17,166 nt of DNA, taken from the NCBI GenBank assembly GCA_041640635.1, contig JBEPZX010000025.1:1-17166 (forward strand), read 5' to 3'. The notes under the pieces are model-generated. The model did not search any database. It was not told where the DNA came from and worked only from the letters and a program-made list of their open reading frames with translations. The position numbers and the translations under genes are program-made. The stretch is from Aquificaceae bacterium. Its GTDB lineage: Bacteria > Aquificota > Aquificia > Aquificales > Aquificaceae. Positions 4,319 through 16,342 of the stretch are shown here, piece after piece. Within the stretch, counting starts at the first letter, position 1. Every line of letters begins with the position of its first letter.

Positions 4319-5735
4319 GTTTATAGATAACTACCTTGTTCTTGCCGGTAGATTTGGCTTCGTAAAGTGCCTCATCTGCCTCTCTTATTAGATCATCTAT
4401 GTTTTCTGTCCCCTTTCTAAAGTGTGAAATACCAATGCTTACGGTTGTTTTTATCTCTTTGTTGTTGTAGATGACTATAGTGTTTTCAAATCCCTTTCTT
4501 ATACGTTCGGATACTTTGTATGCACCATCTGTGTTGGTATTTGGAAGTAATACGGCGAACTCCTCACCTCCAAACCTGGCTGCCACATCCGAACTTCTAA
4601 GCTCAGATTTTAATATGTTTGCAAAAGCCCTAAGTAACATATCTCCAGCATCATGCCCAAAAGTATCGTTAACTTTCTTAAAGTTATCGATATCAATGAT
4701 AATTACACTTAAGCTCGTATCATACCTTTTTGCATTTTCAATAAGTGTTTGTGCATTAATAAAAAAGTATCTCCTGTTAGGAAGGTTTGTCAGTGGGTCA
4801 TAGTATGCTAACTCTTCTAGTTCTTTGTTTTTGAGCTCTAGCTCTTTAATTAGCTCTTTTATCTTATTTACGGCGTCATAAAAGGCTCTTTTTAGTATTC
4901 CTATTTCATCCTTTGAGTTACTTTTTTGCAGGAGTTCAACCACCTCAAAATTGCCCATTTCAATCTGTTCTGCTACCTTTGTAAGTTCGTTTATGTCCTT
5001 GGTTAAGTAAGATGCTATTCTATTTAGTAATATTGAAGACATTAAAGAAATAACTACGGCAAAGGACAAAAGCAATAGGAAGTTTTCATACTCCCTTCTA
5101 TATACGTTTTTCAAATCCTTAAATAGGACTATTTTACCTCTAGCATTACCATCTTGAAACCACATAGGAAGTTCCATTAGAAGCACTTTATTCAAGAATT
5201 TACCGTGTATTTCCCAACCTTTTATATCTAATGGGTATGAAAGTAGCTCTTCTTTGCTTCTTTTTTCAACTATTATTCTACTGTCAAGTATTTGCTTATT
5301 TTTCATATACTCGTCTAGTTCCTGACCTTTTAAATCTAGCCATTCTCTGTATATCACAATTGCGTAATTTTCAGAATGCAGAAATTTTATCATTTTTAGT
5401 ATTTCTTCGATAGATTCACCAACAAAGTAACAACCATTCTCAAATTTTCTCTGTATACCGTAAATCGTTCCTGATGGCAAAGTTAAAAAGTATCCTTTTA
5501 TCGTTTCACATTCTCTGCCTATCCATAGTTTTATGTCAACCTTTTCCCTATTTTGCAGTTCTTTTATTTCATGTTCCAAAATTTGTATGTATGATTGATG
5601 TGCTTTGTTGTATACTTCTACTATGTAGTTCTCAAGGTGTTTGTTGAATAAATATGCTACTGCTAACAGCATAAATAAGGTTGTGAATAATGCATTACCT
5701 AATAAACTAAGTAGTATTTTCCCTTTGAGGGACAT
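4275..5735 (-). CDS. Membrane-bound diguanylate cyclase (TM, periplasmic sensor, TM, HAMP, GGDEF)
   Basis: Two hydrophobic helices, HAMP (SKDEIGILKRAF), YDPLTNLPNRRYF, DIDNFKKVNDTFGHDAGD, I-site RSSD and active site RFGGEEF. The ORF-track start 5789 overlaps nadD, so ATG 5735 (MSLKGKIL) is preferred. Confidence 0.92.
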   Translation of the reverse strand: MSLKGKILLSLLGNALFTTLFMLLAVAYLFNKHLENYIVEVYNKAHQSYIQILEHEIKELQNREKVDIKLWIGRECETIKGYFLTLPSGTIYGIQRKFENGCYFVGESIEEILKMIKFLHSENYAIVIYREWLDLKGQELDEYMKNKQILDSRIIVEKRSKEELLSYPLDIKGWEIHGKFLNKVLLMELPMWFQDGNARGKIVLFKDLKNVYRREYENFLLLLSFAVVISLMSSILLNRIASYLTKDINELTKVAEQIEMGNFEVVELLQKSNSKDEIGILKRAFYDAVNKIKELIKELELKNKELEELAYYDPLTNLPNRRYFFINAQTLIENAKRYDTSLSVIIIDIDNFKKVNDTFGHDAGDMLLRAFANILKSELRSSDVAARFGGEEFAVLLPNTNTDGAYKVSERIRKGFENTIVIYNNKEIKTTVSIGISHFRKGTENIDDLIREADEALYEAKSTGKNKVVIYKPKTKEHQKEDLQET

Positions 5736-5754: not shown

Positions 5755-6348
5755 ATGCATCTTTTTTTTGGCGGAAGTTTCGATCCCATACATATTGGAC
5801 ACCTAATTGTGGGAAGAGATGTCTTAGAAAAACTGAGAGCAGATAAGCTGACCTTTATACCTACTTATCAAGCACCTTTAAAAGAAGCACATCAAGCAAG
5901 ACCGTTAGACAGGTTGAGTATGATAAAACTAGCTATAAAAGATCAAAAAAACTTTCAAGTCAGCGATATTGAGATTAAAAGAGGTGGCATCTCTTATACC
6001 GTCGATACGGTGATGGAGCTTTTTAAACTCTATAGTGAAAAACCATACTTTGTTATGGGTGCAGATAGTCTTCTCAGCTTACATTTGTGGAAAGAGCCCC
6101 AAAAAGTTACCTCTCTTGCTTGCTTGGTTGTAGTAGATAGGTTCAATAAGGCAAAGGAGATTCTTAAGTATATGAAATATAAATTCCCACATCTTAAAGA
6201 GGATCAAGACTATATACTCTTAGAGGTAAGAAGGGTTGATGTATCTTCTACAGAAATAAGAGAAAGAGTTAGGACTGGGAAATCTATCAGGTGGCTTGTC
6301 CCTCAAGAAGTGGAAGACTATATAATAAGAAAGGGGCTCTACAAGTGA
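5755..6348 (+). CDS. nadD: Nicotinate-nucleotide adenylyltransferase
   Basis: FGGSFDPIHIGH (HIGH motif), SYTVDT, MGADSL, VSSTEIRER, VPQEVEDYI. Confidence 0.96.
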   Translation: MHLFFGGSFDPIHIGHLIVGRDVLEKLRADKLTFIPTYQAPLKEAHQARPLDRLSMIKLAIKDQKNFQVSDIEIKRGGISYTVDTVMELFKLYSEKPYFVMGADSLLSLHLWKEPQKVTSLACLVVVDRFNKAKEILKYMKYKFPHLKEDQDYILLEVRRVDVSSTEIRERVRTGKSIRWLVPQEVEDYIIRKGLYK

Positions 6349-7727
6349 GACTTAAATTATGTGGTGCTGCCAAGTTGGTTACTGGTAGTTGTATATATAT
6401 ACAAGTTCACGATAAAAATATTCTGATAGACTGTGGAATGTTTCAAGGTACACAAGAGGAAGAAAATAGAAAACCTTTTCCTTTTGATCCTAAAAATATA
6501 GATTACTTAATTTTGACTCACGCGCACATAGATCATTGCGGTCGTATTCTTCTCTTGGTAAGACAAGGGTTCAAAGGTAAAATCGTTTGTACGGACCCTA
6601 CCGCAAAGATAGCAAATATTATGCTTTTAGACGCTGCAAAGGTTATGTACGAAAACTACAAAACTATGCTCAGAAAACTTGAAAGGACAGGTAAGGTTCC
6701 GCCTGAACCTCTTTACGATGAATACGATGTTTTGGAGAGCTTACCTCTTTTTAGTCTAAGACTTCCATACTACAAAGAGTACAGGATATCAAACAATATT
6801 AGTGTGACACTCAAAAATTCCGGACATATTTTGGGTTCTGCTTTTGTTGAGCTTAAAGTTTATGAAGATAAGAAGGAGAAAAAAATTATTTTCTCTGGGG
6901 ATCTTGGGAATAAGAACAAACCCATAGTAGATGATCCGGATCATCCAAGTAAAGCCGATTACGTATTTATAGAAGGTACATATGGGGATCGTAACCATAG
7001 AGATTTTCGAGCTTCAAAGGAAGAACTTTTGGATGCGATAAAGTATGCTTTTTCTAGAAACGGAAACGTCTTGATTCCATCTTACGCTTTAGAGCGAGCT
7101 CAGGAGGTTCTTTTTGTATTAAGGGAGTTTTATGATGAAGGAAAGCTTCCAAAGTGTAAGATATTTTTGGATAGTCCACTGGCTATAAGTATAACAAAGA
7201 TATTTCTTTCCAATCCAGATTTTTACGATAGAGAAACTTACAAAATTTTTCTAGAGAAAAATCCTTTTGATTTACCAAATTTATACTTGACAAAAGATGT
7301 TGAAGAATCAAAATCCATAAATACTGTAACCTCGGGCGCTATAATCATAGCAGGATCCGGAATGTTAACGGGTGGCAGGATACTACACCATCTTAAGTAT
7401 AACCTTTGGAGAGAAGAGTGTGCTTTGGTGTTTATAGGCTACCAACCCGAAGGAACACTTGGACGGAAAATAATAGATGGTGCAGATGTAGTTAAGATAT
7501 TCGGTGAAGATATAAGTGTCAAAGCAAAAATCTACACTATAAATGGCTTTTCTTCCCATGCGGATCAAGCTGGCCTTTTAGAGTGGCTTTCATACACACA
7601 AAATCCTAAAAAGGTTTTCTTAGTTCACGGCGAAGAGCAAAAATTAGGCATTTTTAAGGATGCGATACATAGAAACCTAGGTTTAGACGCCTATATCCCA
7701 AGTATGGATCAAGAATTAGAGCTTTAA
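6345..7727 (+). CDS. Metallo-beta-lactamase/beta-CASP RNA-metabolising hydrolase
   Basis: GAAKLVTGS, IDCG, THAHIDHCG (HxHxDH), GHILGS, FSGDLG, EGTYG, GSGMLTGGR, GFSSHAD, VHGE. GTG 6345 overlaps the nadD stop (GTGA) and is preferred over 6291. Confidence 0.93.
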   Translation: MRLKLCGAAKLVTGSCIYIQVHDKNILIDCGMFQGTQEEENRKPFPFDPKNIDYLILTHAHIDHCGRILLLVRQGFKGKIVCTDPTAKIANIMLLDAAKVMYENYKTMLRKLERTGKVPPEPLYDEYDVLESLPLFSLRLPYYKEYRISNNISVTLKNSGHILGSAFVELKVYEDKKEKKIIFSGDLGNKNKPIVDDPDHPSKADYVFIEGTYGDRNHRDFRASKEELLDAIKYAFSRNGNVLIPSYALERAQEVLFVLREFYDEGKLPKCKIFLDSPLAISITKIFLSNPDFYDRETYKIFLEKNPFDLPNLYLTKDVEESKSINTVTSGAIIIAGSGMLTGGRILHHLKYNLWREECALVFIGYQPEGTLGRKIIDGADVVKIFGEDISVKAKIYTINGFSSHADQAGLLEWLSYTQNPKKVFLVHGEEQKLGIFKDAIHRNLGLDAYIPSMDQELEL

Positions 7728-7768: not shown

Positions 7769-7796
7769 TGTAAATATAATAGGAATTATATTAACA
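7769..7796. other. Candidate dif-like (Xer tyrosine recombinase) site TGTAAATATAA-TAGGAA-TTATATTAACA
   Basis: 28-bp 11-6-11 inverted repeat with one arm mismatch and an ATAA-N6-TTAT core. The right arm matches the E. coli XerD arm TTATGTTAAAT at 8 of 11 positions. It lies between convergent genes. Confidence 0.5.
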
Positions 7797-7842
7797 ACAC
7801 TCTCTTTAATCTTATTGCTGTTTAGTGATATCAAATTTTATA

Positions 7843-7893
7843 TTTGACGGCAAAAATATAAATATGTCAAAGCGTTATAAATAAACATGTCAA
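7843..7893. repeat. Direct repeat ATAAA(T/C)ATGTCAA (7858-7870, 7881-7893) plus inverted TTTGAC-N17-GTCAAA (7843-7871)
   Basis: Read directly from the sequence. On the minus strand it gives TTGACA-N17-TTGACA. Confidence 0.55.
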
Positions 7894-7925
7894 TAAGTAT
7901 AAGAGGGCTGGTATTTGTTACAAAT

Positions 7926-8618
7926 TTAAAACATATTACTAAGCTTACTTTTCAACTTATTAATTGCCTGTAACTTTATCTGAGAGACACGGGCTACCGA
8001 TACATTAAGAATTTCTGCAATAGCCTGCAAGGGTAGCTCTTCATAAAACACTAACTGAAGCACTAGTTGTTCTTTATAATCTAGTTCCTTGACAGCTTGT
8101 AGAAGTTTTTCTCGTATATCCTTTTTCAGTACAGCTTCCTCAGGATCATCTTCATTAGATGGAAAGAACTCTTCGTAACTTCTCCCTTCACTGAAGAGCT
8201 CATCTAAACTTAAAAAATTGGAAAAGGCGATTTTTTCTAAATCTTTCTGAAGGTCTTGTATGGATACGTTTAAATATCTCGCAATTTCTTCATCTGTGGG
8301 TTCTTTCCCAGTCATGCTAGTTAGTTCTTCTATTGCTCTTTTTATTTTTTTCTCTTTCTCTCTTAGGCTTTTGCCTAAATTGTCAAGACTTCTTAAATAA
8401 TCGTAAATAGCACCCTTTATTCTTAACTTAATATAAGCAATTCCACCCTTTGATATATCCAACTTATTCACAGCTTCTACGAGCCCCAAGATGCCATATC
8501 CAACTAGATCATTTATATCTACAGAGTTAGGTAGACGTTTGTATATTTTGTATGCTACTGACTTTACTAGTGGCAGGTATTTAAGAATAAGTTCCTCCTT
8601 TTCTTTTCCCGTAAGCAT
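7926..8618 (-). CDS. fliA: FliA/WhiG family RNA polymerase sigma factor (sigma-28)
   Basis: KYLPLVKSVA, RLPNSVDINDLVGYGILGL, RIKGAIYDYLRSLD, GKEPTDEEIA, LSLDEL, and region 4 EELPLQAIAEILNVSVARVSQIK. Confidence 0.92.
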   Translation of the reverse strand: MLTGKEKEELILKYLPLVKSVAYKIYKRLPNSVDINDLVGYGILGLVEAVNKLDISKGGIAYIKLRIKGAIYDYLRSLDNLGKSLREKEKKIKRAIEELTSMTGKEPTDEEIARYLNVSIQDLQKDLEKIAFSNFLSLDELFSEGRSYEEFFPSNEDDPEEAVLKKDIREKLLQAVKELDYKEQLVLQLVFYEELPLQAIAEILNVSVARVSQIKLQAINKLKSKLSNMF

Positions 8619-8696
8619 AGGATTTTAAAAGTATTATATCTGTTCTTTTGCATAGAATAGTTCGAAAGAGTCTTAATATTTACTTACATAGATGCC

Positions 8697-9299
8697 TTAA
8701 CTTTGGCTTGCTCTCAATTTTTCGATCTCTACTTCTTTTTGAAAGAGCTCTTTTTCCTTTTCCAAAAGTGCTTTTTGAATTTCTAAGTCCTTTTGTGCTA
8801 TTTGGAATTCCTTTTCTTTAAGTTTTGCTTCTAACTCTTTGTTTTCTTGCTCTAAACGCTTTATCTCTTCTTTTAATTTTTCTAATTCTCTTTCCATTTG
8901 GCTGATCTTAGTCGCATTCGCTTCTTTCTCTTGTCTTAGAAATTCTATCTCCTTTTCCTTAACTGCCAACAAGGTGTATAAACTCGAAAGTTCATATAGT
9001 AGTTCCTCCTTTTGCATATCTTTAGCTATTTGGAGTTCTATATATGTAGCAATAAGGCTTCCTTCTAATGAAGATTTCAATTTATCTATTGTTTCTTTCA
9101 ATTGTGTCTGAATCTCTTCTTTTTGCTTCTTAGTTCCTGCCAAATGATCGTATTCTTCCTGGGAAATATAAACATACCATATTCCATCTTCCTCTTTAGA
9201 TCCACTTAAAATACCTGCCCTTATCCTGTTTTTTACCGTGTTTAAAGATACTCCAGAGAGATTTGCATACTCACTTGCTTTTATCTTTAGAAGTTCCAT
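8697..9299 (-). CDS. Hypothetical protein with N-terminal excisionase/MerR-like winged HTH and a long C-terminal coiled coil
   Basis: KASEYANLSGVSLNTVKNRIRAGILSGSKEEDGIWYV fits a wHTH. The C-terminal roughly 90 aa form an E/K/L heptad repeat. Confidence 0.8.
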   Translation of the reverse strand: MELLKIKASEYANLSGVSLNTVKNRIRAGILSGSKEEDGIWYVYISQEEYDHLAGTKKQKEEIQTQLKETIDKLKSSLEGSLIATYIELQIAKDMQKEELLYELSSLYTLLAVKEKEIEFLRQEKEANATKISQMERELEKLKEEIKRLEQENKELEAKLKEKEFQIAQKDLEIQKALLEKEKELFQKEVEIEKLRASQS

Positions 9300-9364
9300 G
9301 AAAAATATAATAATACTTTTTTAAATTTTTATTGATTACTCATTAAAAGCTTATTTAAAGTTTA

Positions 9365-9390: not shown

Positions 9391-11212
9391 CTAGAGCTTT
9401 ATACTACACATCATTGGAAATCCAACAGCTATGCCAGTTAAGTAAAAACTACCTGTTTTTAAAGAAGGTAATAAACCAAGGTAATCTTGCTCATAAGGAC
9501 CAAAAAAGGGAGATATTGCATCTATATCGTTCTTTGTAACCAATCTAAATATAGCCTGTGTGTTCATTTGTGAAAGTACATACTTACTCAAGTTTGCAGG
9601 CCTTTGTGTTATTGCTACAAGACCTAAAGAAAATTTTCTGCCTTCTAAGGCTATTTGCCTACTTACTTGAAAGGATATTTTATCCGTGCTAATATGATCC
9701 ACTCCCCTTTCAGGTGAGAAATGATGTGCTTCTTCCAAAACTATAAGCCTTTTTTGATGAAAGTGCCTTGAAACATTGAAGATTTCTTTAAGTATCAAAC
9801 CGACAAGGTTTATTCTAGAATCTAAGATTACTATATCTTTCAAATCGAATAAAACTACTTGCTTCTCTGAATTTATACCTTTGTTTATGAGGTTACATAC
9901 GTGGGTTTGGTTTTTAATTGCTTCGTTTCCATTGTAGTGGGACAATAGATCTAAAAAATCACTAATTGTATCTTTAATATCTCCACAAGAATATAATTTC
10001 AATATGTCTTCAAAGGATTTAGAGTTGTAAGCTATGAACTTAATGTCAGGTTTAGGTATTTACGTATTAGAGAAAAACTCTCTCATGAGTTGATTTTTCT
10101 TGAATATTTATACCTTCATTTTTAAATAATTCCTTTAAATCTTCAGCGTTTATTGGGAAAACAGTATTGGGAAAAACTATATGTTCTATATCTTTTGACG
10201 AAATTTTTTCTTTGTATTCTCCATATACATCAAAAATAAAAACCTTAACTTCTTGATTTTGTAGATTTTCAATCAATTTACTTACAAAAGTTGTTTTCCC
10301 AGAACCGGTAGAGCCAAGCACGGCCATGTGCATACCACATACCTTATTAATGTCAATAAATGCTTTGGATCTAGATGTTGCTATATTTCCACACTCAACT
10401 GGAATACTCATAGGGTATCCAGCCATATTTATCTTGAAGATCTGGTCATCCTCTAAAGGAAATGCTTGTGCTGGAAGCTCTAAGGGATATATGGGTGGCC
10501 TAGTTTTACTTTCTCTTTCTTCAACTTCATGAAGATATTCTATAAGAGGTTTTATTAACACATGAGTGATTTTTCCTAATTCTTCATTTTTTGCGTAGAA
10601 AAAGGAAGCAAGCAATAGCTTATTTTTACAAAACTCCGGTTGTACTTGTATATCTTGCGTATATTGGCTAATTATCCTGCATAAAACGTAGCCTCTGTTT
10701 GTGGGGATTTTTACGAAGGATTCTAATGGCATATTTTCAAGTAAAACACCCTTCAAAAATCCATTCTCGAGCTTCTGATATATAACTATGCTAGCAGAGT
10801 CCTCAAGTTTGATGGATTGGCTCATTATTTCCTGATAGGTCTTTATTACCTCTTTTATATCTGGTGCGTAAGTTAGAAATTCTAAGTTTTCTTCCATTCC
10901 TCCATAGGTAACGTTTGCCGAACCTACCAAAGCTTTTTCATCATCCACCATGATTATCTTGGCATGAAGCTTAGAACTTATATATAGCTTTGCATTGAAA
11001 GCTTGAACTACTCTAAAAGTTCTTAGATCAGTTATTTTTATATCTTGCAAGTTTGATACTCTTATTACTACTTCAATAGACACATCATCTTTTATGTTTG
11101 CTAGCATCCTTTCCAGGAGATCCCCTCTTATCCATGGAGAAATTATGCTAACTTTTCTCTTAGCTTGTGATACTAAGTTTATTATGTCGTTAATGTGTGG
11201 ACTTTCCATCAT
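9391..11212 (-). pseudogene. PLD(HKD)-nuclease/HerA-family (DUF87) ATPase fusion, split into two ORFs (10067-11212 and 9391-10002/10059)
   Basis: N-part has LHAKIIMVDDEKALVGSAN (HxK-x4-D-x6-GSxN), Walker A HMAVLGSTGSGKT and FDVYGEY. C-part has Walker B IVLEEAH, EGRKFSL, TQRP and SQMNT. The two halves of one ATPase fold are in different frames, with stops at 10067-10069 and 10060-10062. Confidence 0.8.
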
Positions 11213-15876: not shown

Positions 15877-16179
15877 AACAAAATAACCTCCTAGAAGTTT
15901 TTGAAAGAGTCGCGGTATTTTGATGGTTAATTTTAATAATAAATCCTTTATGTAAGAATGATAAAAGACATAGAGATAGATTAAGGTGTTAATAAACTAA
16001 TAAAAAACTGCTATACCTCAAATGCATTTTTAGATTTTAGTTCTCCTTTCATAAAGGATCATAATTCCTCAAATCGATAGTGAAGTTGTTTGTGTAAGAT
16101 GAAAAGCAAAAATTTATTTATTTATTTTTATGAAATGAAAAATTAATTTCAATGAAAGGAACTCTCCTATTTTATTAAA

Positions 16180-16204
16180 TTTTATAAGTAGTATAGTTAT
16201 AAAA
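16180..16204. promoter_or_regulatory. Palindromic operator-like site TTTTATAAGTA-GTA-TAGTTATAAAA upstream of sbtA
   Basis: 11-3-11 inverted repeat with one mismatch. It overlaps minus-strand TATAAC/TATACT -10-like hexamers, with TTGAAT 16 nt upstream of TATAAC. Confidence 0.45.
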
Positions 16205-16342
16205 CGTGATTGCTTAGATTCAATAAAAATCCAAGAGTGTAAAATAAAAAGGGACTACGAGAAATACCACAGTAAGAGTAAGAATTATTTATCTTTCTTT
16301 TGTAAAACTTTGCTGTTTAGCTCAATCCAGTTTACATTATGA

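Follow-up and report, generated by a model that had tools for sequence, protein, structure and literature searches.

The 28-bp palindrome at positions 7769-7796 of the window (the whole 17,166-nt stretch analyzed, contig C25 of G000, an Aquificaceae draft genome of 52 contigs and 98% completeness) is most likely the chromosomal dif site of a single-recombinase, FtsK-independent Xer system of the Aquificaceae, a hot-spring family. This assignment, proposed as a candidate in the sequence-only reading, holds on the uniqueness of the site, conservation limited to 28 bp, one Xer recombinase, co-absence of the site with Xer, and a mostly origin-opposite position. In the best reading of these comparisons, the system would work like archaeal XerA/dif, yet its Xer is not a XerA.

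The site reads TGTAAATATAA-TAGGAA-TTATATTAACA on the plus strand and comprises two predicted 11-bp Xer-binding arms (left, 7769-7779; right, 7786-7796) around an asymmetric 6-bp central region (7780-7785; TTCCTA on the opposite strand), in agreement with the sequence, coordinates, and 11-6-11 geometry first described. The left arm is one base away from the family consensus TGTTAATATAA, the right arm is the commonest half-site of the family (24/52), and the family consensus of the center is TTGCYA. Both arms mirror each other at 10 of 11 positions, and the symmetry ends where the arms end. The site sits in a 198-bp gap between a gene for a beta-CASP metallo-beta-lactamase-fold nuclease (6291-7727, plus strand), a left neighbor that is not conserved beside the site, and the sigma-28 gene fliA (7926-8618, minus strand). 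The sole other gap above 100 bp in the window spans 15877-16342, so that this is indeed one of only two large intergenic gaps. No intrinsic terminator was found, and an Rfam search gave one snoRNA match below threshold, which we take as chance.

The form alone is not unusual: with N runs excluded, the 1.43-Mb assembly has 24 palindromes of 11-6-11 geometry that allow no more than one mismatch. In contrast, AATATAA-N6-TTATATT is present once in the whole assembly, the second-best match to the 22 arm bases has four mismatches, and none of 300 simulated windows contained such a palindrome with an ATAA-N6-TTAT core; the site is thus unique in its genome. Gene orientation toward the site was recovered as well, with 4/6 genes on the left and 10/11 ORFs on the right aiming at it (9/10 if the split herA is counted as one). 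As an argument for a terminus this is weak, because the genes are grouped in operons, and two appear to owe their direction to a secondary flip.

Among relatives, conservation is confined to the 28 bp. The symmetric pattern with up to three mismatches has matches in 28/36 relatives taken as Aquificaceae (f1), in 0/8 drafts of one sister genus (f2), and in 13/16 genomes of an AT-rich family (f3), while a reversed-pattern control gave near zero matches in f1. For the inspection of loci, G029 and G034 were dropped because their matches lie within ORFs, as was G013, which has a diverged second copy only and whose HTH gene (see below) begins at a contig end; the better copy was used for G036, and G006 was added. 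One good intergenic site is present in 26/36 f1 relatives, including 11/11 closed genomes, a count weakened by kinship among the relatives, which are not independent; the 10 relatives in which the primary site was not found are all drafts. As expected of a dif, the closed f1 chromosomes (11/11) keep a single intergenic copy while the flanks vary. Alignment of 26 sites (25 relatives and G000) yields the family element TGTTAAYATAA-TTGCYA-TTATRTTAACA, with 1.1-2.0 bits at most arm positions, at most 0.54 bit in the flanks, and a partly conserved spacer that is found in either orientation relative to the neighboring gene.

G000 encodes one tyrosine recombinase of 287 aa (contig C9, about 4750-5613; one PF00589 match), and exactly one PF00589 match is also found in 23/36 f1 relatives. 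A count of Xer homologs in G000, suggested as a check at the outset, hence gives one conserved Xer. A tyrosine recombinase is present in 34/36 f1, 16/16 f3, and 1/8 f2 genomes, and 7/11 closed f1 genomes have no second one. In f2, where the site is found in 0/8, enzyme and site are absent together, which counts as one event because f2 is one genus of drafts. The catalytic residues R144, K174, H234, R237, H260, and Y270 are invariant in 57/57 aligned orthologs (57 of 120 listed), and the R-K-H-R-H/W-Y set of tyrosine recombinases is intact in the family Xer.

Profile scores place the family Xer far below the curated cut-offs for XerA (93.7 versus 220 bits), XerD (91.4 versus 329.6), XerC (90.8 versus 335), and XerS (40.4 versus 267), and no XerH model is among its profile matches. 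The best match among solved structures is XerA of P. abyssi (4A8E, E 1.8e-10). In a tree of 51 recombinases built from fetched loci, which contains no archaeal sequence and no reference XerA, XerC, or XerD, the 15 family orthologs form one clade (100/99) separate from the f3 clade; homologs named in their sources come from Thermocrinis, Hydrogenobacter, and Aquificaceae, for which reason f1 is taken as Aquificaceae. With these scores and its own family clade, the recombinase is not the archaeal XerA that the symmetric arms had called to mind. G007 carries a broken xer-like remnant after the HTH gene (L008:2261-2615), with an intact xer 10 kb off.

FtsK-gamma (PF09397) was found in 0/61 genomes, compared with 8/14 controls. 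All PF01580 matches cover just the N-terminal P-loop part of the model, and the best one in G000 is the PLD-HerA gene of the window itself. Thus, neither of the two hallmarks of XerC/XerD-FtsK systems, two paralogous recombinases and an FtsK translocase, was found. Aquifex is reportedly without FtsK, according to the 2004 work of Iyer and colleagues on FtsK and HerA. Among the f2 drafts (G037-G051, odd numbers), no tyrosine recombinase was found in 7/8, and FtsK-gamma and the site in none.

Because it departs from each of them in a defining feature, we do not file the system under XerA, XerCD, XerS, or XerH. XerS/difSL and XerH/difH, the latter FtsK-dependent, resemble it in having a single recombinase whose gene often lies beside the site. 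Their sites are atypical with a GAAAAC...TTTTC core (accessible sections of PMC2731167), and XerS is still FtsK-dependent (accessible sections of PMC2958812); here, the core is canonical, and the XerS score falls short as given above. With XerC/XerD-dif-FtsK of E. coli and most bacteria, the system shares the 28-bp 11-6-11 form, the ATAA-N6-TTAT core, and a single intergenic copy that is usually origin-opposite. The arms are identical at 8-9/11 positions to the E. coli XerD arm TTATGTTAAAT (as given in the accessible part of PMC2731167), which resembles the family half-site TTATRTTAACA; the inverted repeat thus carries a XerD-like arm, as a dif does. In contrast to XerC/XerD-dif-FtsK, one Xer, no XerC-type arm, and no FtsK in 61 genomes were found.

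The closest likeness is to archaeal XerA/dif of Pyrococcus, Thermococcus, and Sulfolobus, where one recombinase acts at a near-symmetric 11-6-11 site without FtsK, a combination that is also found here, and where the position of the site is loosely tied to the terminus. Thermococcales dif lies at 122-144 degrees (PMC5357621), and Sulfolobus dif lies outside the fork-fusion zones (PMC3020120), both according to the accessible text. The differences are the bacterial host, the linked small DNA-binding gene, and the dif-binding motif, which is (K/N)RG(S/T/V)LQV here, whereas XerA has xKx. The accessible sections of PMC5357621, PMC2958812, and PMC3020120 describe XerCD and XerS systems as requiring FtsK and archaeal XerA as recombining without it; bacterial dif/Xer is presented there as FtsK-dependent, and FtsK-free resolution is described for archaea.

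The sequence-only reading had further suggested that the window may hold the replication terminus, a comparison that we made in closed relatives. Origin-like DnaA-box clusters were located by sequence in G002, G006, G014, G021, G050, G054, and G057 and from motif positions alone in G010, G012, G026, and G028, that of G026 not being at a strand-bias switch; no cluster was found in G011, G020, G032, and G060 of the 15 closed genomes. In each sampled genome, strand bias was read at the four-fold sites of 20 segments of 20 kb; its sign changes at the G006 and G002 clusters, so that both are validated and the sign is fixed. Expressed as a fraction of the chromosome, the site-to-origin distance is 0.496 in G002, 0.48-0.50 in G028, 0.48-0.49 in G012, 0.46-0.49 in G050, 0.472 in G021, 0.447 in G026, 0.433 in G006, 0.35-0.36 in G010, 0.29-0.31 in G054, and 0.092 in G014, ranges being given where chromosome length is known only rounded. 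Hence, in 10 closed genomes the site is 0.43-0.50 from the origin in seven, 0.29-0.36 in two, and 0.09 in one (G014, whose 9-box origin is unambiguous). The binomial p value for 7/10 at 0.43 or more is 9e-5 (by genera 5/7, p 9e-4), both affected by a threshold picked after the data were seen and by kin that are not independent. In G050, which has two candidate sites, the counted one has the spacer matching its family; with the other, at about 0.16, the count becomes 6/10. G057 was excluded from the count because it has no full site; its core match of 14 bp lies at a distance of about 0.09 from the origin.

The best-fit terminus of G002 (885-945 kb, permutation p 0.004) includes the site at 915.7 kb, and that of G006 lies 57-137 kb past its site; a significant two-replichore signal was seen in 2/6 sampled genomes, the fits for G014, G021, G026, and G032 not being significant (p 0.21-0.75). 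These positions suggest a terminus preference with exceptions, as in archaea: seven of the ten sites lie opposite the origin, and those of G014, G054, and G010 do not. The origin-like cluster of G000 lies outside the window on another contig, and the window, part of a 52-contig draft, would likely hold the terminus.

Several other markers were rejected. As an origin marker dnaA was dropped, since its distance to the site varies widely, between a few kb and about 0.45 of the chromosome, and the box clusters lie far from it; efp adjoins the cluster in G002 only, and one origin-like gap in G021 is a CRISPR array. Low GC is no safe sign of the terminus either: the window ranks third from the bottom among 187 stretches, yet the origin-bearing contig C15 is equally low, and four-fold-site strand bias to the left versus the right of the site has too few sites inside the window. 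The AT-rich origin-like gaps (C15:18190-18600 in G000, C1:226127-226962 in G002, and L373:13540-14080 in G021) have TTTCACA or TTTCCACA in place of the classic DnaA box and, in closed genomes, lie far from dnaA. The accessible parts of bioRxiv 10.1101/2020.07.08.193532 and PMC10721633 yielded nothing on origin position.

An addition to the sequence-only reading is that the site usually lies about 90 bp upstream of one of two types of small DNA-binding gene, either a ribbon-helix-helix (RHH) gene or an HTH-coiled-coil gene, which xer often follows. In the window, the HTH-coiled-coil gene (8697-9299, minus strand) encodes 200 aa, in which a MerR/excisionase-like winged HTH at the N terminus (about residues 3-46) is combined with a long coiled coil. 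Its product, modeled at pLDDT 91, has no significant Pfam, NCBIfam, or Foldseek assignment. Weak matches in Foldseek include BldC, RacA, and a DNA-binding protein of phage P2 (E 0.12-0.18; rmsd 1.5-5.6 across 46-57 columns), and its ESM Atlas neighbors are DUF3972 clusters of Campylobacterota (score 0.92); with RacA, BldC, P2 Cox, and DUF3972 proteins it shares the winged HTH. Strong homologs bear Aquificota-type names only, except for one MAG label.

A clear HTH-coiled-coil ortholog is present in 19/36 f1 relatives. In 17/19 it follows the site at a distance of about 85-100 bp, and the other two genes begin at a contig end. Moreover, xer directly follows in 11/19, and site, promoter, HTH gene, and xer form one run in 10 genomes. 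Metagenome loci have the same arrangement of site and HTH gene in 16/17, the seventeenth beginning at the gene. In genera g6 and g9, an unrelated RHH gene takes the same place (6/6), so that in 23/26 relatives a small DNA-binding gene (17 HTH and 6 RHH) lies downstream of the site at a distance of about 85-105 bp. A TTGACA-like element lies just downstream of the site at loci with a DNA-binding gene. Between site and gene, TGAYRNCA-type repeats occur at 12/14 HTH loci and 0/6 RHH loci and GTARTRC-type repeats at 6/6 RHH loci and 0/14 HTH loci; since the motifs were derived from the same loci, these counts are descriptive and no independent test. Unlike ram and matS sites, which are spread around their locus, the promoter repeats show no matS-like spread around the site. 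In G014, G025, and G036, the site is present without either gene; neither is thus essential everywhere.

In the window itself this arrangement is disturbed. Positions 7797-7915 (plus strand) form a promoter-like region that, by eye and motif counts, is homologous to the promoter of the HTH-coiled-coil gene in relatives, with TGAYRNCA-type repeats at 7826 and 7845, and now faces the 3' end of fliA. Because the right flank resembles the HTH promoter, yet both the HTH gene, which is without a purine-rich ribosome-binding site, and fliA point back at the site, we infer that the segment of about 7920-9300 was inverted in this lineage, which would have separated the HTH gene from its promoter. Within the apparently flipped segment, fliA is a passenger, adjoining the site in 0/46 related loci compared. 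No repeat pair was found at the ends of the segment. The arrangement may possibly be a misassembly; one contig of the single public DNA run listed, which may be the source sample, bridges the right-hand junction, and none of the contigs of that run spans the stretch. Among sequencing runs of RNA, none was listed as containing it. Contigs of run X1 part from the window sequence precisely at two points, the right edge of the site (7796-7798) and 9306; they may come from other strains or species that share the site, or may show alternative arrangements.

Beyond these relatives, the symmetric motif, searched for as an exact match in all GTDB genomes, occurs in at least 122 stretches. Among the matches listed, 25 of 80 flanked loci have a tyrosine recombinase ORF within 2.5 kb (8/14 Aquificota, 7/9 Peribacteria/Peregrinibacteria, and 10/57 others), counts that are given without a formal background rate. 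Since recombinase ORFs lie near the motif across phyla, this proximity independently supports the motif as a probable Xer target. In Peribacteria/Peregrinibacteria (L082, L101, L121, L130, L134, L139, and L144), symmetric sites with the spacer TGCATT, AATGCA, or TGCAGT adjoin a tyrosine recombinase gene or lie within about 30 bp upstream of it, probably a second single-Xer dif module. In Paenibacillus (L127/L128, L079, L094, L098, L110, and L120), a tyrosine recombinase gene is flanked or directly adjoined by the motif, L127 having a copy on either side; with several copies per genome, this looks like mobile Xer cassettes. Diverged second dif-like copies occur at G013:C46:50520 (intergenic, about 8 kb from xer), G022:C15:7558, G007:C13:34719, G028:C1:462750, and G050:C1:209073, and further ones at G044:C3:338880 and 338935; they are possibly scars of Xer-hijacking elements. 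On a 2.2-kb Aquificaceae contig (L067:1675-1700), a site is flanked by two divergent genes of 116 aa that are related to each other, and the setting is plasmid-like.

These second copies (G007, G013, G022, G028, and G050) and the L067 copy speak for an attB or attP remnant of a mobile tyrosine integrase without a housekeeping role, the alternative already raised in the sequence-only reading. A single copy in 11/11 closed f1 genomes, seven of them without a second tyrosine recombinase, makes a pure attachment site extremely improbable; moreover, no mobile element flanks the site in G000, and the cognate Xer is a single family-wide clade. Attachment as the only role is therefore largely excluded, and use of the site by hijacking elements is compatible with a dif.

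The nearly constant position about 85-105 bp upstream of a DNA-binding gene in 23 of 26 relatives, just upstream of the TTGACA-like element and likewise in 16/17 metagenome loci, fits an operator of the HTH-coiled-coil, RHH, or another regulator. As the site is usually upstream of a promoter, this alternative is stronger than the sequence-only reading could see. Against it, the HTH and RHH folds are unrelated and each comes with its own repeats between site and gene, so that neither protein explains the shared 28-mer; further, the site is kept where both genes are missing (G014, G025, and G036), lies between converging genes in G000, and is a single copy with a conserved spacer that tracks tyrosine recombinases across phyla. 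We consider an operator very improbable. Very improbable, too, is that Xer binds the site chiefly as a repressor of its own operon or in some other role, decatenation or plasmid resolution for example, which would suit the contiguous run up to xer in 10 genomes and the off-terminus position in 3/10. The site is kept though xer is distant in G000, G002, G011, G014, G020, G026, and others, and repression needs neither an origin-opposite bias nor a conserved asymmetric spacer.

If the site is a dif, as we favor, known Xer systems suggest that two monomers of the single Xer would bind each site, that the sister sites of a chromosome dimer would pair in a tetramer, and that two rounds of tyrosine-mediated strand exchange over the asymmetric 6-bp center would release two monomers. 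Use by a single enzyme fits the symmetry of the site, and the asymmetric center would give direction. Without FtsK and KOPS, the sites would have to pair through the closeness of the sisters late in replication, as has been suggested for archaea. Site position would then be under looser selection, and the displaced sites would be accounted for.

The HTH-coiled-coil or RHH gene may assist the Xer system or may simply be linked to it. Going further, we put forward as a tentative and rather doubtful proposal that a dedicated accessory protein encoded beside dif replaces FtsK control, in a three-part module with PLD-HerA as a possible DNA pump. The HTH-coiled-coil protein, or in two genera the RHH protein, would bind its own repeats within 100 bp of dif and set the direction of resolution on Xer, like the accessory sequences of plasmid cer/psi; alternatively, it might tether the terminus, like RacA- or ZapT-like proteins. 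The PLD-nuclease-HerA ATPase fusion gene of the window (9391-11212, minus strand) is read in two frames (10067-11212 and 9391-10002), with the split near 10003-10066; in relatives it is a single ORF of some 620-660 aa. PLD-HerA and the site are no more than 75 kb apart in G010, G012, G021, G032, and G035 and far apart in G002, G006, G014, G026, G028, and G054, and the gene may possibly be linked to the Xer system. Such a three-part bacterial dimer-resolution module, if true, is absent from the literature searched.

A search of the literature, with supplements and most subscription papers outside its range, gave no description of an Aquificota dif/Xer/FtsK system, and the DUF3972 literature gave no paper on this system. 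Table 1 of the dif survey PMC3025954, accessible in part, has no Aquificae row, and its supplement might list Aquificae. The main texts of PMC8138268, PMC2731167, and PMC2958812 leave Aquificae unmentioned, and the supplement of PMC8138268 might contain entries. With the predicted pair of one thermostable protein and one oligonucleotide, dimer resolution in FtsK-less bacteria becomes directly testable, and an uncharacterized gene family gains a candidate accessory protein. A putatively self-sufficient thermostable recombinase with its site may possibly serve as a genetic tool. For genomes in which dnaA position and GC skew are uninformative, the site provides a probable terminus landmark along with origin candidates.
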